A stretch of 64,000 bases of DNA, taken from assembly GCA_001772335.1 (NCBI GenBank), contig METM01000020.1, positions 17,795 through 81,794 on the forward strand, given 5' to 3'. The DNA comes from a candidate division WOR-1 bacterium RIFCSPHIGHO2_01_FULL_53_15 (GTDB taxonomy: Bacteria > Margulisbacteria > WOR-1 > O2-12-FULL-45-9 > XYB2-FULL-48-7). The position numbers and the translations under genes were made by a program. The notes beneath the pieces were generated by a model. That model did no database searches, was not told the origin of the DNA, and was given only the letters and a program-made list of their open reading frames with translations. Position 1 is the first letter of the stretch, and the number at the start of each line of letters is the position of its first letter. Shown here piece by piece: positions 3,067 through 59,235 of this stretch.

Positions 3067-3732
3067 CTATTTCGGGGCGTGCTTGATGACTTTGCCTTCC
3101 ACCATATAGACGACGTCTTCGCCGATATTGGTCGTGTGGTCGGCGATCCGCTCGAGATGCCTGGCGATCAGGATGAGCGGCAGAGCTCGGGAAATGGTGG
3201 ACGGGTCCTTGGTCATGATCCCTACCAATTCGTCATGGATCAGGTCGCGATAGCCGTCGGCTTTTTCCTCATCTGCCCAGAGTCCCCGCGCCATCGCCGC
3301 ATCGCGTTTGACGAAAGAGTCAAGCGCCCGGTGGACCATCTTTTCCGCCAGTTCCGCCATTTTGGGAATGTCTTCGAGCGGCTTGAGGAGCGGCTGTTTG
3401 GAGAGCTCGAAGGCGCGCAAAGCGATATCGACCGCCAGGTCGCCGATCCGTTCGATGTCCGAGGCGATGCGCATGCCGGTCGTAATAAAGCGCAAGTCGA
3501 TCGCCATCGGCTGCTGCGTCGCCAGGAGCTCCAGGCAGAGCTCATCGATCTCCAGCTCGAGCTTGTCGATCCCGTCATCTAATTTAATGACCTGATCGGC
3601 CATTTTGGCATCCGACTTCTTGAGCGCCTCGACCGAATTGAAAATGCTCTTCTCGACCATTCCCCCCATTTTTAAGATGAGGTCGTTCAACTTCGCCAGC
3701 TCCTTTTGAAAGTGCTCCCTCTGTTCTATCAT
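3067..3732 (-). CDS. phoU: Phosphate transport system regulator PhoU
   Basis: 221 aa with two PhoU repeats (DxxIDxLE, ERIGDLAVDIA, ERIADHTTNI). It lies at the 3' end of the pst operon. Confidence 0.9.
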   Translation of the reverse strand: MIEQREHFQKELAKLNDLILKMGGMVEKSIFNSVEALKKSDAKMADQVIKLDDGIDKLELEIDELCLELLATQQPMAIDLRFITTGMRIASDIERIGDLAVDIALRAFELSKQPLLKPLEDIPKMAELAEKMVHRALDSFVKRDAAMARGLWADEEKADGYRDLIHDELVGIMTKDPSTISRALPLILIARHLERIADHTTNIGEDVVYMVEGKVIKHAPK

Positions 3733-4481
3733 TAACCAAACCTCCCTGTGATGTAATCCTCCGTCCGTTTATCAGCCGGGGTCGTGAAGATCTTTTTCGT
3801 GTCGGCAAACTCGACCAGCTCGCCCAGGAGCAGATAGCCGCAATCGTCGGAGATGCGCGCCGCCTGCTGCATGTTGTGCGTCACGATAACGATAGTATAC
3901 TGCTTTTTCAGTTCGATCATCAACTCTTCGATTTTCATGGTCGCAAAGGGGTCGAGCGCCGAACAGGGCTCATCCATCAGCAGGACCTCCGGCGTGACGG
4001 ACAAAAGCCGCGCGATGCAGAGGCGCTGCTGCTGCTCGAGCGAGAGGCCGAGGGCGTTCATTGAGAGCTTGTCTTTTAGCTCATCGAACAGGAGCACGGC
4101 CGACAAACTCTTCTCCGCCGCCTCGGCCAAAACCTGTTTGTTCTTTTCGCCGTGGACGCGCAGGCCATAGACGACATTCTCGAAGACCGAGAGAGGGAAG
4201 GGATTAGGGCGTTGAAAGACCATGCCGATCCTTTTGCGCAGGGTGATCAGGTCAATTTCATGGTCAAGGATCTCCTTGCCCTCGAAATTGACGCTGCCCG
4301 ACATCCTGACACCCTCGATCAGGTCGTTCATCCGGTTAAAGACGCGCAGGAGCGTCGACTTGCCGCAGCCCGACGGCCCGATCAGCGCGGTGATCCGGTT
4401 GCGCTCGATCGCCAGGTCAACATCGATCAGCGCTTGGAATGCGCCATACCATAGGTTCAATTTGTTCGTTTTGATGATCAT
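3732..4481 (-). CDS. pstB: Phosphate ABC transporter ATP-binding protein PstB (copy 2). Walker A, Q-loop and H-loop are canonical, but the signature motif is degenerate.
   Basis: It carries [30 protein letters not shown] and VTHNMQQ. The signature reads [13 protein letters not shown] instead of [13 protein letters not shown]. Confidence 0.9.
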
Positions 4482-5230
4482 TATCCGAATCTCCCGGTAA
4501 TATAATCTTCAGTGCGCTTGTCTTTAGGCACGGTAAAGACCTGTTTCGTCTCGCCGATCTCGATCATCTCGCCCATCAGGAAGAAAGCTGTCCGGTTGGA
4601 GACGCGGGCCGACTGCTTGACGTTGTTGGTTACGAGTATCTGGGTGTAATTTTTCTTGAGCTCCTGCATCGCCTCTTCGACCTTCAGCGTGGAAATAGGG
4701 TCAAGCCCCGAGCACGGCTCATCATAGAGGATAACCTCCGGCTCGACCGCCAACGTCCGCGCAATGCAGAGCCGCTGCTGCTGCCCGCCGGAGAGTTTAA
4801 AGGCATTCGTCTGCAGACGATCTTTGACTTCATCCCAGATAGCGGCGGCTTTCAGCGATTTCTCAACGATTTCAGAGAGCCGCGCCCGGTTTTTTATGCC
4901 ATGCATTCTCGGCCCGTAGGCAATGTTGTCAAAAATGGAAAGAGGGAAAGGAAGAGGAAGCGCAAAAACGATTCCGACCCTTTTTCTCACCGAGTGTTTA
5001 TCGATCTCTTTTATTCTCACTCCGTCCAGAAGGATTTCTCCACTGGTTCTGGAATTTGGATAAAGTTCGTTCAAACGGTTCAGGGCCTTCAGAAACGACG
5101 TCTTGCCGCTGTTGGAAGGGCCGATGATTCCAAGGATATCATGCTCCTTGACCTCCAGCGACAAGTTCTTGACCGCGTGGACGCCCTCAAAGAAGACGTT
5201 CAGGTTCTTAACTTCGATTTTGTTCACCAC
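4481..5230 (-). CDS. pstB: PstB paralog (copy 1). The signature motif is intact but the Q-loop and H-loop are substituted.
   Basis: It carries [22 protein letters not shown] and [11 protein letters not shown]. The Q-loop reads [10 protein letters not shown] (Q to A) and the H-loop reads VTNNVKQ (H to N). Confidence 0.85.
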
Positions 5231-6072
5231 GTCTTCCTCTTTCTAAACCGCGCCCGGATATAAGCAGCGATAACGTTCAGAATAAAGATCATGCCGACCA
5301 GGACGAGAACCGTGCCGTATTGGATCTTGACGCTGACGCCCGGCACCTGGGTTGAGAGAACATATATATGGTACGGCAAAGCCATGGCCTGGTCATAGAC
5401 CGATTGCGGCAGGCGGGGCAGGTAAAAAGCCGCCACCGTAAAGAGGATCGGCGCCGTCTCGCCGGCGGCGCGAGAGAGCTCCAGAATGGTTCCGGTCATG
5501 ATCCCCGGCACGGCATTGGGCAGGACAACGTGGCGCACCGTCTGCCAGCGCGAAGCGCCCAGCGAATAGCTGACTTCACGAAACGAACGAGGCACGGCGC
5601 CGAGCGCCTCGCGGGTGGCGGTGATGATCACCGGCAAGCCCTCGATCGCCAGCGTCAGGGAACCGGCCAGAATTGACGAGCCAAAATTGAGAAAAATGAC
5701 AAAAAGTCCCAGGCCGAACAGGCCGTAGACGATCGAGGGAACGCCGGCCAGATTAATGATGGCCAGCTCGATCAGCCGCGTCAGCCGGCTTTTTGGCGCG
5801 TATTCATTCAGATAGATCGCCGCCAGGATCCCCAGCGGGATGGAAAAAACTGCCGCGCCCAGCACCAGGTAAGTTGTGCCAACGATAGCCGGGAAAATGC
5901 CGCCCGCCCGCATCCCCTCGCGCGGCATACTAAAAATAAATTCCAGCGAAAGACCGGGTAAGCCGCGGAACAGGACTAGCAGGACGATTAGCGCTACCGG
6001 GATGACGATCAGGATCGTGGCTGCTTGCAGACAGGCAAAAGCTATTCGCTGGGTACGATTGGTGTCTCTCAT
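5224..6072 (-). CDS. pstA: Phosphate ABC transporter permease PstA
   Basis: 282 aa polytopic membrane protein with an EAA-like loop (ALGAVPRSFREVSYSLGASRWQT). Its position in the operon fits. Confidence 0.9.
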   Translation of the reverse strand: MRDTNRTQRIAFACLQAATILIVIPVALIVLLVLFRGLPGLSLEFIFSMPREGMRAGGIFPAIVGTTYLVLGAAVFSIPLGILAAIYLNEYAPKSRLTRLIELAIINLAGVPSIVYGLFGLGLFVIFLNFGSSILAGSLTLAIEGLPVIITATREALGAVPRSFREVSYSLGASRWQTVRHVVLPNAVPGIMTGTILELSRAAGETAPILFTVAAFYLPRLPQSVYDQAMALPYHIYVLSTQVPGVSVKIQYGTVLVLVGMIFILNVIAAYIRARFRKRKTW

Positions 6073-6938
6073 CTGGCCGCCTTCCTGTGCAAAAAGAGAT
6101 CGGCCAGCAGGTTAATGACGAAGCTGATAATAAAAAGAACAATGCCGATGGCGAACAGTGCGTAATAATGCTCACTGCCGGAGACCGCCTCCCCCATCTC
6201 GGCGGCGATCGTCGCCGTCAGCGTCCTGACCGGCTGGAGTATGCTCGTCGGCAGGACCGCCGCGTTGCCGGTGATCATGAGGACCGCCATCGTCTCGCCA
6301 ATCACCCGTCCTATACCAAGCATGACGGCCGCCAGGATGCCGGACGAGGCGGCCGGCAGGACAACGCGATAAATAGTCTGCCAGTGGGTGGCCCCCAGCG
6401 CCAACGACCCCTCGCGATAGTTCTTGGGTACGGAGACGATGGCGTCTTCGATGATCGAAACGATCGTCGGCATTGCCATGAAGGCCAGCATGATCGAGCC
6501 GGCCAGCGCGGTCAGCCCGCTCGACAGGTGAAAAACCGATTTTAAAAAGGGCGCCAGGGTCACAATACCGATAAAACCGAGAACGATGCTGGGAAAGGCG
6601 GCCAGAAGCTCAATACCCGATTTGAGGATATCGCGCAATTTGGGCGGCGCCACCTCGGCCACGTAAATGGCCGACGCCAGGCCCAGCGGCACCGCGATCA
6701 CGATCGCCCCCAGTGTTACCAGGAGCGATCCCAGAAATAGCGGCAGGATACCGAAACGCGGCGGATCGGAGATTGGGTACCAGTTCTTGCCAAAAAGAAA
6801 ACCGGTTAAGCTTTCGGTCTGGAAGAGCGCCAGACCTTCCTTGAGCAAAAAGAAAAAGATCAGCACCACGAAAATGATCGAGGCGATCCCCGAAAGGAAG
6901 ATCGCCCGCTCGATCAGGAATTCGAAGGCTCTTTTCAC
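6069..6938 (-). CDS. pstC: Phosphate ABC transporter permease PstC
   Basis: 289 aa polytopic membrane protein with SLALGATHWQT. It overlaps pstA by 4 nt. Confidence 0.9.
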   Translation of the reverse strand: MKRAFEFLIERAIFLSGIASIIFVVLIFFFLLKEGLALFQTESLTGFLFGKNWYPISDPPRFGILPLFLGSLLVTLGAIVIAVPLGLASAIYVAEVAPPKLRDILKSGIELLAAFPSIVLGFIGIVTLAPFLKSVFHLSSGLTALAGSIMLAFMAMPTIVSIIEDAIVSVPKNYREGSLALGATHWQTIYRVVLPAASSGILAAVMLGIGRVIGETMAVLMITGNAAVLPTSILQPVRTLTATIAAEMGEAVSGSEHYYALFAIGIVLFIISFVINLLADLFLHRKAAR

Positions 6939-56022: not shown

Positions 56023-56442
56023 TTAAAATGGTATCTCGTCTTCGGCTGCTTGTGGGTCTTGAGTTTGAGTCTTGGGTCTTGAGTCTTGAGCCGCGCTCTC
56101 GGGTCTCCCGCCTAACATCTGCATGCCGTCGGCCACCACTTCCGCCATCGTCTTCGGCTGGCCGTCCTTGCCGGTATAACTTCTGATCTGCAGGCGGCCT
56201 TCGATGGCGACCGGCCGGCCCTTTTTCAGATACTCGCCGCAGATCTCAGCCAGCCGGCGCCAGGCCACGATATTAATAAAATCAACAGCCTGCGCTGAGT
56301 TTGACCCCGCCCCGGCTTCATCGGTTTTCTTCTTGAAGCGGTTGACCGCGATGGCGAACGAGGCGACCGGGATGCCGCTCGTCGTAAAGCGCAGTTCCGG
56401 GTCGCGCGTCAGGTTGCCGATCAAAAATACCTTGTTATACAT
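56023..56442 (-). CDS. ssb: Single-stranded DNA-binding protein
   Basis: It has an OB fold (VFLIGNLTRDPELRFT), a Q/P-rich linker and an acidic tail ending DEIPF. Confidence 0.85.
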   Translation of the reverse strand: MYNKVFLIGNLTRDPELRFTTSGIPVASFAIAVNRFKKKTDEAGAGSNSAQAVDFINIVAWRRLAEICGEYLKKGRPVAIEGRLQIRSYTGKDGQPKTMAEVVADGMQMLGGRPESAAQDSRPKTQTQDPQAAEDEIPF

Positions 56443-56445
56443 AGC

Positions 56446-56853
56446 TTAAAACGGCAAGTCGCTTTCCAACTCCGAATCATCAATGATCTCTTCTTTAACT
56501 TGCGAACCGGCAACCGGCGAACTGTTAGGCGAACCGTCCAGCCTCGTCATATTCTTCGCCACGACCTCCGTCACCCAGCGGCGCTGGCCGCTTTGGTCTT
56601 CGAACGAGCGATTCTGGATGCGCCCCTCAACAAGCGCCAACCGTCCCTTTTTCAAATCCTGGCCGCAAACCTCGGCCAACCGCTGCCAGGCCACCACGTC
56701 GATCAGGTCGATGCTGTCATCGCGCCGGGCGCCGGCCACGGGCCGGTCGACCGCCAGGCGGAATTTCGTGACGGCCGTGCCGTCGGTGGTGGTGCGGGCT
56801 TCGGGGTCGGCCGTCAGCCGGCCCACGAGAATGATCCTATTGAGATTCGCCAA
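56446..56853 (-). CDS. ssb: Second SSB paralog in tandem
   Basis: The OB fold reads IILVGRLTADPEAR. The acidic tail ends DLPF. Confidence 0.7.
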   Translation of the reverse strand: MANLNRIILVGRLTADPEARTTTDGTAVTKFRLAVDRPVAGARRDDSIDLIDVVAWQRLAEVCGQDLKKGRLALVEGRIQNRSFEDQSGQRRWVTEVVAKNMTRLDGSPNSSPVAGSQVKEEIIDDSELESDLPF

Positions 56854-57248: not shown

Positions 57249-58333
57249 TTATACACCAAAGCGGATCAGAAGTAAATCCCCGTCCTCGACCGCATATTCC
57301 TTCCCTTCGGTGTGGACAAGCCCCTTTTCTTTGGCTTTGGCCATCGTGCCGGAGGCGATAAAATCATGGTAGTGGACAACCTCGGCGGCGATATAGCCGC
57401 GTTCCATGTCGGAGTGGATCCTGCCGGCCGCCTGCGGCGCTTTGGCGCCGCGGGTGATCGTCCAGGCGTGGGAATCCTTCTCGCCGGCGGTAAAAAACGT
57501 GATCAGGTTGAGCAATTCGTAACCGGCGCGGATCAGTTTAGCGAGCGCCGCTTCCTTGACCCCCAGCTCGGCCAGGTAGGCCTGCGCGTCCTCGGGAGTG
57601 AGTTCGGCCAGCTCGGCCTCGAGTTTGGAGGAGATGGTCACCACGCGAGCATTCTCTTCTTTGGCGATCGCCCGGATGATCTCGACCTGGTCGTGGTCCC
57701 CCGATTCGTCGACGTTGGCGGCATAGAGGACCGGCTTGACGGTCAAAAGCGAGAGCTCCTTCAAGAATTCCCGGTCCTTGTCCTCGATGTGGAAGTTACG
57801 GGCCACTCGCCCGGCTGCCAGCCAGTCATAGAGCTCCAGCAAAAAAGCGTTCTCTCGGACAGCGCGCGGGTCGCCGGTCTTGACCCTTGGCTTGATATAA
57901 GTCATTCTCTTATCGGCCTGCGACATGTCGGCCAAACTTAATTCCAGGTTAATGATCTCGATGTCGCGTTTGGGGTTAACTTCCCCCTCAACATGGACAA
58001 TCTCCTCGCTCTTGAAACAGCGCACCACGTGGAGGATGGCGTCAACCTCGCGGATGTTGGCCAAAAACTTGTTGCCCAGCCCTTCCCCCCGGCTTGCCCC
58101 CTTGACCAGCCCGGCGATATCGTAGAACTCGATGATGGCCGGCACGATCTTCTTGGAGCTGAACATTTTGGCCAGCGTCTGCAGCCGCTCATCCGGCACC
58201 TCGACCACGCCGATGTTCGGGTCGATGGTGCAGAACGGATAGTTCGACACGTTCGCCTTCGCCCGAGAGAGCGCGTTAAAGAGCGACGATTTGCCGACAT
58301 TGGGAAGGCCGACGATACCGAGGGAAAAGCTCA
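57249..58333 (-). CDS. ychF: Ribosome-binding ATPase YchF
   Basis: It has [12 protein letters not shown] (G1), the TGS domain and the YchF C-terminus. The start is placed at [11 protein letters not shown], preceded by TGCTATAAT 6 nt upstream (leaderless). Coordinates are +/-1 nt. Confidence 0.85.
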
Positions 58334-58349
58334 TGTAAAGATTATAGCA
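58269..58349. repeat. Direct repeat copy 1 (~81 bp), the native ychF 5' end plus promoter
   Basis: I read it directly. It is near-identical to 59022..59102, with 3 substitutions and one 2-bp indel. Confidence 0.8.
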
Positions 58350-58381
58350 TATACGCTCTGGGACCCTGCTATAATTGCTGT

Positions 58382-58747
58382 ATGTCCGACAAAAAGGAAG
58401 TTTATATTGTTGGCGGCCCGAACGGCGCGGGGAAGACAACCTTTGTTGCGCAATTCCTTCCAAAATATGTGAACGTTTCCAATTTCATTAATGCCGATAA
58501 TATTGCCAAAGGGCTCTCTCCGCTTGGCGCCCCGCTAATGGACATCACTTCAGGCAAACTGATGCTAAAATTGATCGACAAATATCGTAATAAAGGAGAA
58601 AACTTTGCTTTTGAAGAAACTTTAGCCGGCAAGACGTTGGTCTCGAGCAAGACACCGGAGCTGATCGCCAATAATATCGCCGGAGAATTAAAAGTGATCG
58701 ACCCGAAATATTTGAAAATTTTTGAAGATACTTTAGGTGAGAGATAA
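58382..58747 (+). CDS. Zeta-toxin/AAA-like P-loop protein, probably a C-terminally truncated remnant
   Basis: The protein reads YIVGGPNGAGKTTF. It is 121 aa where the family typically runs ~190-250 aa. It lies between the direct repeats. Confidence 0.45.
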   Translation: MSDKKEVYIVGGPNGAGKTTFVAQFLPKYVNVSNFINADNIAKGLSPLGAPLMDITSGKLMLKLIDKYRNKGENFAFEETLAGKTLVSSKTPELIANNIAGELKVIDPKYLKIFEDTLGER

Positions 58748-58752
58748 ACAAT

Positions 58753-58950
58753 ATGGTGCCGCGCGATAAAACCGATAAGCTTGGACAAATGGCGGAGAAG
58801 GCCCTGAAAGAAGCCGTCAAGGGAGCGCTCGAACAGCATCGCCGCATGAAAGTCCCCGCTGTTTACATGCGAAACGGCAGGATCGTTTATTTAATGCCGG
58901 ACGGCAGGGTGGTCAATAAGCCCAATGACCGCAAAAGCGCAAAGAAGTAG
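58753..58950 (+). CDS. Hypothetical small basic protein (65 aa)
   Basis: The ORF sits immediately downstream of the P-loop gene and inside the repeat-bounded cassette. Confidence 0.3.
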   Translation: MVPRDKTDKLGQMAEKALKEAVKGALEQHRRMKVPAVYMRNGRIVYLMPDGRVVNKPNDRKSAKK

Positions 58951-59021
58951 CTTTCCTCTCCCCTCCCCTCTCCTGCCTTGACTCTGACTTTCCTATAGGA
59001 CTACTGCAAATTAGTCAAGAC

Positions 59022-59102
59022 AGCGCGTTAAAGAGCGACGATTTGCCGACATTGGGGAGGCCGACGATCCCGAGGGAAAAGCTCATAAGATTATTATAGC
59101 AT
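59022..59102. pseudogene. Direct repeat copy 2, a duplicated ychF promoter plus the first 23 codons ([23 protein letters not shown]) with no downstream continuation
   Basis: Its reverse complement contains TATAAT, an ATG and a ychF N-terminal fragment that ends abruptly. Confidence 0.7.
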
Positions 59103-59163
59103 GACAGAAACTTGAAGACCCTTCTGATATTCTGATATACTGATATTCTGAATAACCTGACAC

Positions 59164-59235
59164 GGCCCCATCGTCTAGGGGTTAGGACACCAGCTTTTCA
59201 AGCTGAGAACCGGGGTTCGATTCCCCGTGGGGCTA
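59164..59235 (+). tRNA. tRNA-Glu (anticodon UUC)
   Basis: I folded the cloverleaf by hand. The acceptor is GGCCCCA/TGGGGCT and the T-arm has GGTTCGATTCC. The anticodon loop is TTTTCAA with TTC at positions 34-36. No CCA is encoded. Confidence 0.8.

Follow-up and report, generated by a model that had tools for sequence, protein, structure and literature searches.

A degraded zeta-toxin-type cassette upstream of ychF is flanked by a long duplication of the gene start, a structure that recurs at many other gene ends

It has long been asked by what means toxin-antitoxin and restriction-modification modules in chromosomes can move when they carry no mobility genes. Integrase-borne islands carry long imperfect direct repeats that restore the end of the target gene, for example at the 5' end of dusA. 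In the AvrRxo1 system the toxin gene comes first, as it does in the cassette described here. Free-standing mobile ORFs of fungal mitochondria, studied by Paquin and colleagues in 1994, reportedly bring along the 3' end of a foreign gene and leave the resident end behind as a downstream relic. Insertion with long target duplication is known for restriction-modification gene complexes (Furuta, Abe and Kobayashi 2010, PMC2853133), and an earlier description is cited in that paper (Nobusato et al. 2000, Gene 259:99). The direct repeats around restriction-modification inserts measure 30 to about 420 bp, and the insertions were tentatively ascribed to DNA breaks made by the enzymes themselves (PMC2853133).

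We analysed a 64-kb stretch of DNA from a candidate division WOR-1 bacterium (the window), in which a two-gene cassette lies between two copies of the start of ychF. The features of the locus are as follows.

57249-58334, minus strand: ychF, intact, 361 aa (TIGR00092, 448 bits, E = 2.6e-134)
58266-58350: direct repeat copy 1, comprising ychF codons 1-23 and 16 nt upstream, including the extended -10 box
58351-59017, plus strand: inserted DNA, 667 bp, GC 0.47, between the repeat copies; missing upstream of ychF in the related loci L048-L052
58370-58375, plus strand: the cassette's own -10 box, TATAAT after TGC, followed by 6 nt and the toxin ATG
58382-58747, plus strand: remnant of a predicted zeta-toxin-family gene, 121 aa, P-loop; Walker A kept, deletion junction near 58642
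58753-58950, plus strand: partner gene, putative antitoxin, intact, 65 aa, basic
58951-59017, plus strand: C/T-rich tail of the insert, 67 nt, not in other cassette copies
59018-59102: direct repeat copy 2, relic ychF start with its ATG at 59086 on the minus strand, then 23 codons
59164-59235, plus strand: tRNA-Glu(UUC), intact (ARAGORN; Rfam tRNA, 59.6 bits)

The two copies form an 85-nt direct repeat (58266-58350 and 59018-59102) that aligns without gaps at 91% identity with a spacing of 752 bp, and BLAST of the left against the right flank of the insert returned it with E = 8e-25. The first-pass annotation had placed the copies at 58269-58349 and 59022-59102, within 4 nt of the computed ends. 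Its reading that the repeat is not a generic motif also holds, and a scan of the whole window yielded this single close direct repeat of such kind, the other match being a paralogue pair at 58%. The repeat spans positions -16 to +69 relative to ychF, and copy 1 thus contains the first 69 nt of the gene. As had been proposed, copy 1 is the functional start: the full 361-aa gene begins there, and the duplication leaves ychF intact. Its extended -10 box reads TGCTATAAT on the minus strand, with TATAAT at 58341-58346. Copy 2 retains ATGCTATAAT followed by 6 nt and an ATG, and its reading frame of only 23 codons, with the TATAAT kept as earlier noted, ends at a TGA (59015-59017) just beyond the repeat. 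The extended -10 box of this relic is directed antisense into the cassette, and its promoter can fire in that direction. Copy 2 is continuous with native DNA upstream of the tRNA, since 59107-59146 matches the related locus L049, and the tRNA-Glu gene starts 61 bp past it, close to the 60 bp first reported.

The inserted DNA has a lower GC than ychF (0.47 vs 0.585), in keeping with the foreign origin suggested for it, and was an estimated 886 bp or so in length before the deletion in the toxin gene. Only 58366-58960 is common to the cassettes of other loci. Both open reading frames lie on the plus strand, opposite to ychF, with 5 bp between them, consistent with the near-zero spacing originally noted. 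The toxin ATG follows the -10 box by 6 nt, which implies a transcript without a leader, and the same arrangement, (T)G(G)TATAAT with 6-7 nt to the ATG, is seen at the other cassette loci displayed. No inverted repeats were found at the ends of the insert, and a terminator scan found none. The Rfam search gave the tRNA as its sole match, and the PADLOC defence-system models returned P-loop noise only.

The exact YchF protein occurs on 13 contigs. At the six listed places of these contigs, which come from several samples and assemblers, the cassette is always present, and the contigs that span the region are base-for-base identical to the window. The ychF-repeat-cassette structure is not an assembly artefact. 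Among the same 13 contigs and six listed places, which represent the window's own population, there is neither an empty site nor a circular junction. The annotation had called for a comparison with relatives lacking the insert. Relatives with 84-91% identical YchF keep the order ychF-rpsF-ssb-ssb-rpsR-rplI without the cassette, and L048-L052 each have a single ychF start. In L052, the tRNA-Glu gene stands divergent from ychF at a distance of 164 bp with no cassette between them, which is the empty site. The two ssb genes near the locus are tandem paralogues with a 72% repeat.

The 121-aa protein had been described as truncated relative to zeta-toxin relatives. Alignment with the 194-aa relatives shows instead that about 73 codons are missing in frame from the interior of the gene, with both protein ends, including the C-terminus, conserved; tblastn matches query residues 1-87 and 161-193. 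The deletion removes residues ~88-160, and with them the invariant R116, R120, G124 and G125 and the nearly invariant H126. The protein retains Walker A (GGPNGAGKT) but not the complete P-loop kinase fold of Walker A, lid and catalytic segment. In the profile search that had been suggested, the protein scored 18.8 bits against Pfam Zeta_toxin (PF06414), below the gathering cut-off of 22.3, whereas its 194-aa relatives pass with 37.8-53.4 bits. The structure model of these relatives (pLDDT 92.7) matches AvrRxo1-ORF1, PezT and zeta, and Foldseek aligned the full-length relatives to zeta-type toxins with E = 2e-8 to 2e-6 and TM 0.6-0.74. A sequence search of solved structures with both cassette proteins gave P-loop or chance matches only. 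Judged from its sequence, the 121-aa protein is a remnant of a zeta toxin family member. A search for a pre-deletion version of the window's gene gave as its closest variant P0122, which is the same locus.

The 65-aa partner has 18 homologues with 24 invariant columns, and its AF2 model shows a helix, a beta-hairpin and a basic tail. It had no match in Pfam, NCBIfam or solved structures, and the fold search gave no significant match. The small gene lies directly downstream of the zeta gene in most loci with a tblastn match, and the same zeta-then-small order is found on Synechocystis pSYSG and on a Geminocystis plasmid. The small genes there are homologous to the 65-aa gene (hhalign 92% and 87%), a relationship that emerged only by profile comparison, as tblastn of the 65-aa protein against plasmids and phages gave no match. 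At the cassette loci the small gene persists, and the toxin gene is in many cases missing or disrupted by a deletion or frameshift. A toxin-antitoxin-type addiction module is the most likely identity of the cassette, with a putative toxin first and a small, presumably neutralising partner second; the cues are indirect, namely a two-gene operon that is conserved, carriage on plasmids, and toxin genes that frequently decay next to a retained partner. The idea of a degraded zeta-toxin-type, addiction-like cargo is supported. An epsilon- or PezA-like antitoxin gene upstream of the toxin is absent from the window's cassette, where the partner lies downstream; the 47 bp between the ychF ATG and the toxin ATG leave no room for one.

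The same structure was found at other loci of the cassette family, whose hosts are uncultured Saganbacteria/Margulisiibacteriota as well as deltaproteobacterial and Omnitrophota MAGs. Close flanking direct repeats were present at 10/29 testable metagenomic cassette loci, in sharp contrast to 4/176 random control positions (Fisher P = 5e-7). The four controls with repeats are weak, three at 65-70% identity and one of 28 nt only, and are not cassettes. Four further repeat-flanked cassettes came from 13 genome-collection loci, while about two thirds of cassette loci have no detectable flanking repeat. The flanking repeats in the family measure 20-118 bp. At the loci where the repeated DNA could be assigned, it comes each time from the beginning or the end of a different adjacent gene (ychF 5', SixA-like 5', asd-like 3', membrane protein 3', convergent pyrG/pyrD-like ends and others). 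Both 5' and 3' ends are occupied, and the cassette may point with or against its target gene. The same footprint is seen at more than ten independent gene ends.

At these other loci the repeats enclose just the two-gene unit of ~0.8-0.9 kb, which argues that the unit itself is the mobile thing and against the remnant of a larger integrative element that had been considered. The cassette ends are consistent and minimal, running from the -10 box to 0-10 nt beyond the stop of the small gene. At L060 and L064 the left repeat copy is not directly adjacent to the cassette, and at L032 and L058 microhomology joins are located at the stop codon of the small gene. Three repeat copies are present in L001 and four in L024. 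In the L001 and L015 lineages, the gene fragment and cassette are collinear at 85% identity, and one locus offers a series of three lineages. The L015 contig closes on itself as a 1204-bp unit. The loop could represent identical long repeats collapsed in assembly, in which case the repeat copies share at least 127 nt of perfect identity.

We then compared the repeat copies with each other. The 69 coding nucleotides agree at 66/69 positions, which matches the identity of ~95% given earlier; this figure does not extend to the 16 nt upstream, of which 5/16 are mismatched in the gapless alignment. The difference between the two parts, 3/69 against 5/16, is significant (P = 0.005), and the -10 box and its spacing are kept, with the 6-nt spacer replaced. 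Synonymous and non-synonymous differences stand at 3:0 for the window's copies, 6:0 for L018 and 10:4 for L001. When these are pooled, with L021 left out, 19/23 are synonymous, where decay in place would predict a share of 0.40 (P = 4e-5). With synonymous changes in the majority, the copies resemble a pair of functional alleles and not a decayed duplicate. The suggestion that the incoming DNA regenerated the 5' end of its target fits this pattern, given that all three coding differences in the window are synonymous and the -10 box is kept.

Set beside the restriction-modification insertions, the locus shares most of the structure. The published definition (PMC2853133) asks for a duplication longer than 30 bp as direct repeats, and here it is 85 nt at 91%. 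The repeat is to be single-copy in an insert-free relative, as it is in L048-L052, with ychF beside tRNA-Glu in L052. The insert is to be shorter than 20 kb without other mobility genes, and it is 667 bp with two genes. In place of the restriction and modification cargo, the window carries the apparent zeta-family kinase remnant and the 65-aa protein. We judge the feature to belong to the long-target-duplication structure class with a different cargo. Both kinds of insertion involve a small addiction-type unit without transposase or integrase, flanked by long direct repeats of variable length that are single-copy in insert-free genomes and often cover gene ends, with an insert GC that differs from its surroundings. 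The cassette family differs in carrying a kinase-type toxin and a small partner, not a nuclease and a methylase, so the published idea of double-strand breaks made by the element cannot apply. It differs too in repeats that diverge like functional alleles and in its Saganbacteria/Margulisiibacteriota, deltaproteobacterial and Omnitrophota hosts. In the collection of papers searched, there is no report of a toxin-antitoxin cassette with long target duplication or of zeta toxins from Saganbacteria.

The cargo resembles epsilon/zeta, PezAT and AvrRxo1-ORF1/ORF2 in the zeta P-loop kinase fold of the full-length relatives, the two-gene operon and the plasmid-borne relatives. Compared with the solved zeta-type toxins, the family is only 12-20% identical and shorter, at ~194 aa vs 240-420 aa. 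Unlike in epsilon/zeta and PezAT, the partner is downstream; in the searches of Pfam, NCBIfam and solved structures it matched nothing. The window's toxin copy is without its catalytic half. Integrase-borne islands, at tRNA 3' ends or at the dusA 5' end, likewise keep the target functional through a duplicated gene end and leave a relic at the far junction; the cassette, by contrast, has no integrase or conserved core, uses many targets in either orientation and comprises ~0.9 kb only. As in the fungal mitochondrial elements, the duplicated end of the gene would be a foreign allele beside a small selfish ORF and the resident end a pseudo-copy. Those elements encode homing endonucleases that cut their target, whereas the cassette has no recognisable nuclease.

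We propose, at a probability of roughly 0.6, that a recombinase-free cassette entered 16 bp ahead of the ychF start codon, that it travels with a piece of the gene, and that host recombination installs it. What we observe is an inserted cassette, a duplicated gene start, the same footprint at many gene ends, copies that differ as alleles do, and neither a recombinase gene in the gene tables nor a common core; toxicity, neutralisation and the recombination route by which the cassette is inserted are what we infer. The target before insertion would have been the spacer between the divergent ychF and tRNA-Glu genes, and the cassette would move as DNA together with a piece of the neighbouring gene. 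Host recombination could install it by a homologous exchange within the gene end on one side and a microhomology join on the other; alternatively, recombination between repeats could form a circle that then integrates by a single crossover. Gene ends would be the places where such events spare every gene. Copy 1 maintains ychF with its extended -10 promoter, and copy 2 would be the resident's original start, left as a relic. Post-segregational killing may hold the cassette until the toxin decays; in the window, the putative toxin was later inactivated by the in-frame 73-codon deletion of the lid and catalytic region, with the partner gene surviving. The one-sided homologous route copies an existing location, and arrival at new target genes is not explained by it. 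A bolder version, which we entertain only tentatively, is that the zeta kinase and its small partner form a selfish element that needs no recombinase, sustains itself and passes through a virus-like cycle. Such a unit would duplicate a long stretch of a gene end on entry, loop out or amplify through the repeats as a circle with one target copy, as the 1204-bp L015 unit might be, and re-enter related genomes by host recombination, while the toxin would hold it in place.

The duplication might instead be made de novo, by a break staggered by ~20-120 nt or by replication-coupled template switching, with fill-in giving two identical copies. The sharp repeat boundaries, the consistent minimal cassette ends, the many different targets and the perfect identity of at least 127 nt implied by L015, if collapsed, would all suit such an origin, and restriction-modification genes provide a described example of this structural class (PMC2853133). 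The present differences would then reflect later allelic replacement of the functional gene by recombination with other strains, and the synonymous pattern could indeed also arise from a true target duplication followed by ordinary allelic replacement. However, every diverged locus would need a second event to account for mostly synonymous differences and a replaced promoter spacer, and no nuclease or transposase is encoded to make the staggered cuts. In addition, the outer repeat boundary tends to fall exactly on a start or stop codon (L001, L013, L018), which resembles fading homology between alleles and not a cut site. We consider this origin unlikely. An insertion sequence or transposon was rejected on the basis of the missing terminal inverted repeats and the variable length of the duplications (20-118 bp), and up to 4 kb from the site in the window the gene tables list no transposase family.

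Integration by a tyrosine or serine recombinase, with an integrase lost from a larger island or supplied in trans to a small, non-autonomous element with an att site that mimics the ychF start, is in our view improbable. It would draw on the long imperfect direct repeats restoring a gene end that are typical of integrase-borne islands, and on the three and four repeat copies in L001 and L024, as from tandem accretion. Yet the gene tables, covering up to 4 kb from the site in the window and up to 8 kb at three further loci, list no recombinase gene, and at least 10 different target sequences are used without a common core: the repeats of 11 loci share no attachment core, with a mean longest shared word of 6.2 nt vs 5.85 nt when shuffled. 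The cassette also lies in either orientation at 5' and 3' ends, its repeats enclose the two-gene unit only, and no tRNA sequence is duplicated. The site-specific integration at a tRNA-proximal site put forward in the first-pass annotation accordingly lacks a tRNA duplication, a recombinase and a shared core. The tRNA-Glu gene was rejected as insertion target, being intact and outside the repeat with no part duplicated, and no tRNA was found in a scan of L001-L005. In a comparison with integrons, the repeats are host gene ends and the gene tables hold no integrase family. We give very little credence to the idea that no mobile unit is involved, whether because slippage or unequal crossing-over duplicated the ychF start locally in tandem and unrelated DNA lodged between the two copies afterwards, or because the assembly is chimeric. 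Tandem paralogues do occur nearby, namely the two ssb genes with their 72% repeat, but repeats surround this cargo at many unrelated loci, at a rate far above that of random positions, and the insert GC is unlike that of the host. The six listed places of YchF contigs, from several samples and assemblers, moreover share the structure, those that span it matching exactly.

Taken together, the allele-like copies, the microhomology joins, the self-closing contig and the series of three lineages point to host recombination combined with addiction, and not to a nuclease of the element. For annotation, short relic gene starts or ends next to small two-gene modules flag such insertions. The cassette family offers many natural replicates of the insertion for working out the mechanism. 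If the unit does prove to be a selfish element with a cycle of its own, mobility with long target duplication would be general to addiction modules and independent of any element-encoded nuclease.

The two genes between ychF and tRNA-Glu in the window are bracketed by a direct repeat of 85 nt, 91% identical without gaps and with its copies 752 bp apart. BLAST comparison of the 1.5 kb to the left with the 1.5 kb to the right of the enclosed genes gave E = 8e-25, and self-comparison of the 64-kb window revealed no other close direct repeats of this kind, which bears out the duplicated ychF start described in the first-pass annotation. The features of the region are:

57249-58334, minus strand, ychF (TIGR00092, 448 bits)
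58266-58350, copy 1 of the direct repeat
58370-58375, plus strand, cassette -10 box, read before the toxin ATG
58382-58747, plus strand, P-loop ORF of 121 aa between the repeat copies
58753-58950, plus strand, basic ORF of 65 aa between the repeat copies
59018-59102, copy 2 of the direct repeat
59164-59235, tRNA-Glu(UUC), beyond copy 2

Copy 1 consists of the first 69 nt of ychF and 16 nt upstream, and copy 2 of the same 23 codons followed by TGA; a ATGCTATAAT box is common to both and lies 6 nt before the ATG in copy 2. GC content is 0.47 in the inserted DNA (58351-59017) versus 0.585 in ychF. The exact YchF of this candidate division WOR-1 (Saganbacteria) bacterium, RIFCSPHIGHO2_01_FULL_53_15, was found on 13 contigs, and those spanning the region among the six places displayed match the window exactly. 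Since the identical structure recurs in these six places, across several samples and assemblers, an assembly artefact is excluded. Scaffold L008 departs from the window only over 55-59 nt inside the small gene (5454-5508, equivalent to window 58896-58954), and contig L011 terminates at the same point (window 58895); either a gap in scaffolding or a variant in the population that disrupts the small gene may be the cause. Elsewhere in the window, tandem ssb paralogues (56023-56442 and 56446-56853, minus strand; 139 and 135 aa) have an 82-nt stretch in common at 72% identity, the pair being kept in all relatives examined (cassette-free loci L048-L052), and a 228-nt direct repeat of 58% identity (5443-5670 and 6279-6506) is taken to be two tandem paralogous genes.

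We compared the locus with its relatives, as the first-pass annotation had proposed. Genomes with 84-91% identical YchF carry no cassette upstream of the gene, and the downstream order ychF-rpsF-ssb-ssb-rpsR-rplI is conserved. At the cassette-free locus L052, tRNA-Glu(UUC) is divergent from ychF at a distance of 164 bp, and window 59107-59146, between copy 2 and the tRNA, matches the sequence upstream of tRNA-Glu at L049, another such locus. Together, this arrangement and this match indicate that copy 2 is probably the resident's original ychF start. The cassette insertion point is 16 bp upstream of the ychF ATG. The tRNA-Glu gene was rejected as the target; it is a mere neighbour, and no part of it is duplicated. 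A promoter-like site (59112-59141, plus strand), in which 18 nt separate TTGAAG from a TATACT preceded by TG, is situated 23 nt ahead of tRNA-Glu and overlaps the stretch conserved upstream of the L049 tRNA. At 59015-59102 (minus strand), the relic ychF start retains a 23-codon ORF and an extended -10 promoter that seems intact; this start points towards the cassette, and RNA antisense to the small gene and toxin remnant could result.

The differences between repeat copies are informative about their origin. In the window, 3 synonymous and 0 non-synonymous differences separate them; the repeats at two other cassette loci, L018 and L001, show 6 and 0, and 10 and 4, respectively. Pooled, 19/23 are synonymous, where a share of 0.40 is expected if one copy drifts freely (P = 4e-5). 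The repeat at a further locus, L013, retains its frame and stop codon despite 26% divergence. Within the window copies, 3/69 coding versus 5/16 upstream positions differ (P = 0.005), the -10 box and 6-nt spacing are conserved while the spacer sequence has been replaced, and the variants seen in copy 2 are found in the relatives' functional ychF genes as well. Given these mostly synonymous differences, the conserved promoter and the relatives' variants, the copies resemble a pair of functional alleles derived from diverged lineages rather than a duplicate that has decayed where it stood. The repeat's outer edge often coincides exactly with a start or stop codon, as is expected from fading homology between alleles.

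We then characterized the cargo, which the first-pass annotation had viewed as a possible addiction module with a regenerated gene start, a reading that the zeta-family gene, its partner and the allele-like copies uphold. Its description of the 121-aa protein as truncated needs correction: its first 87 residues and its last 33 align with 194-aa proteins at 75-80% identity, both ends being conserved around an in-frame internal deletion of ~73 residues. The Pfam Zeta_toxin cut-off is exceeded by the full-length relatives. A confident model of the full-length relatives (pLDDT 92.7) has a zeta-type P-loop kinase fold, with AvrRxo1-ORF1, PezT and zeta as best structural matches. Because the deletion takes out the segment with the invariant Arg116, Arg120, Gly124 and Gly125 and the nearly invariant His126, the window's toxin copy is presumably dead. 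Other in-frame internal deletions occur in the zeta genes of P0037, a family protein of 150 aa, and of locus L017 (4137-4557), and repeated toxin inactivation by deletion, with both ends retained, appears across family members.

The 65-aa protein is a member of a narrow, well-conserved family, and in most tblastn-match loci its gene directly follows the zeta gene. Its predicted structure comprises a long helix, a beta-hairpin and a basic tail, and a fold search with this model returned no match. Distant zeta relatives (43-45% identity) reside on Synechocystis pSYSG and a Geminocystis plasmid, each followed by an overlapping gene for 59-62 aa that is homologous to the 65-aa family by profile comparison. 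At many loci, gathered by searching with the small gene, the zeta gene is deleted, frameshifted or absent while the small gene is intact. Taken together, the zeta homology, partner family, plasmid relatives and toxin decay fit a predicted toxin-first, toxin-antitoxin-type addiction module. It is not epsilon/zeta or PezAT, since the partner gene is the downstream one and its product matches neither a known family nor a solved structure. The window's cargo, the remnant of a zeta-toxin-family member, is a decaying relic.

In every cassette copy displayed, a -10 box lies 6-7 nt before the toxin ATG, too close to leave the message a leader. The clade's ychF (window and L048-L052) likewise has TATAAT, often preceded by TG, at 6-7 nt from its ATG, and neither gene has a Shine-Dalgarno sequence, which suggests that both messages are leaderless. 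The two window promoters (58341-58346, minus; 58370-58375, plus) stand back to back within 47 bp.

The cassette recurs widely. A metagenome-contig scan with the small-protein family yielded 36 loci, and a scan of one genome per species added 13, mostly from Saganbacteria and Margulisiibacteriota; distant copies were also found in MAGs of deltaproteobacteria and Omnitrophota. Close direct repeats of 20-118 bp flank it at 10/29 loci with sufficient flank, versus 4/176 random 780-bp positions within the same loci (Fisher P = 5e-7). The matches at control positions are weak (three 65-70% identical, one of just 28 nt), and a chance origin is unlikely. Where readable, the repeats are the ends of differing genes:

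L001, 5' end of a SixA-like gene
L012, 5' end of a 241-aa gene
L013, 3' end of a membrane-protein gene
L018, 3' end of an asd-like gene
L021, 3' end of a 513-aa gene
L058, overlapping ends of convergent pyrG and pyrD-like genes
L060, 5' end of a 72-aa gene

One complete target-gene copy is retained in each case read in detail, and the cassette takes either orientation relative to it. Homology between cassettes is limited to the span from the -10 box through the small gene's stop (window 58366-58960); in several loci the cassette ends 0-10 nt beyond that stop, and in L032 and L058 the junction falls within a few bases shared at the stop codon. At locus L024, a 90-140-nt non-coding repeat in four copies (1068-1205, 2431-2527, 3602-3739, 4596-4699) separates unrelated genes (375 aa, 204 aa, the zeta cassette) and looks like an array from repeated insertion at one site; L023 is related.

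The SixA-like gene is associated with the cassette in three lineages. In L069 only 4 nt separate the cassette from the intact gene downstream of it, and the upstream gene fragment is reduced to a short remnant. L001 has the full 73-nt fragment upstream; downstream come 75 nt left over from an L069-type gene start and then a second allele, which is intact. L015 is a metagenome contig of 1331 bp with an overlap of 127 nt between its two ends. The unit of 1204 bp contains a SixA-like 5' fragment and the cassette, both collinear with L001 at 85% identity, together with the gene's upstream region, an inverted-repeat region and a basic ORF of 50 aa. The contig may represent a circle, a tandem amplification, or long identical repeats that the assembly collapsed. 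The conserved region upstream of the gene (L001 8281-8392, L015 1080-1190) has long A/T-rich inverted repeats (AAAGTCAAAA... / ...TTTTGACTTT) around a TTATAATA box.

Most likely, the cassette travels together with a piece of the neighbouring gene and is inserted by host recombination, which would proceed either through a single homologous exchange within the gene end combined with one join at microhomology, or through a single crossover that integrates a circle bearing one repeat copy. Insertions would persist only where every gene stays whole, and in compact genomes such places are gene ends; the toxin would penalise cassette loss until it decays, as in the window. The principal alternative is a genuine duplication of a long target, after which the functional gene underwent allelic replacement. 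It accounts better for new targets but requires an extra step at every diverged locus. Simple target duplication is inconsistent with L060 (2616-2680 / 4221-4285) and L064 (3108-3224 / 4246-4363), where the rest of the gene and further sequence separate the left repeat copy from the cassette. The tRNA-directed, integrase-type integration favoured by the first-pass annotation is contradicted by the unduplicated tRNA, by gene tables around examined cassette loci with no recombinase gene and by the lack of a core common to the repeats of 11 loci; no inverted repeats were found at the ends of the window's insert. An integrase acting in trans is likewise unlikely.

[quoted passage not shown] The authors tentatively tied it to DNA breaks made by the restriction enzyme and observed that naturally competent species supply most of the cases. 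A review of toxin-antitoxin and restriction-modification systems gives this mode for the latter only (PMC3874152), and our literature search, of incomplete coverage, found no report of long target duplication of a toxin-antitoxin cassette. The cassette family provides numerous natural replicates of a recombinase-free mode of gene insertion that is still poorly understood.
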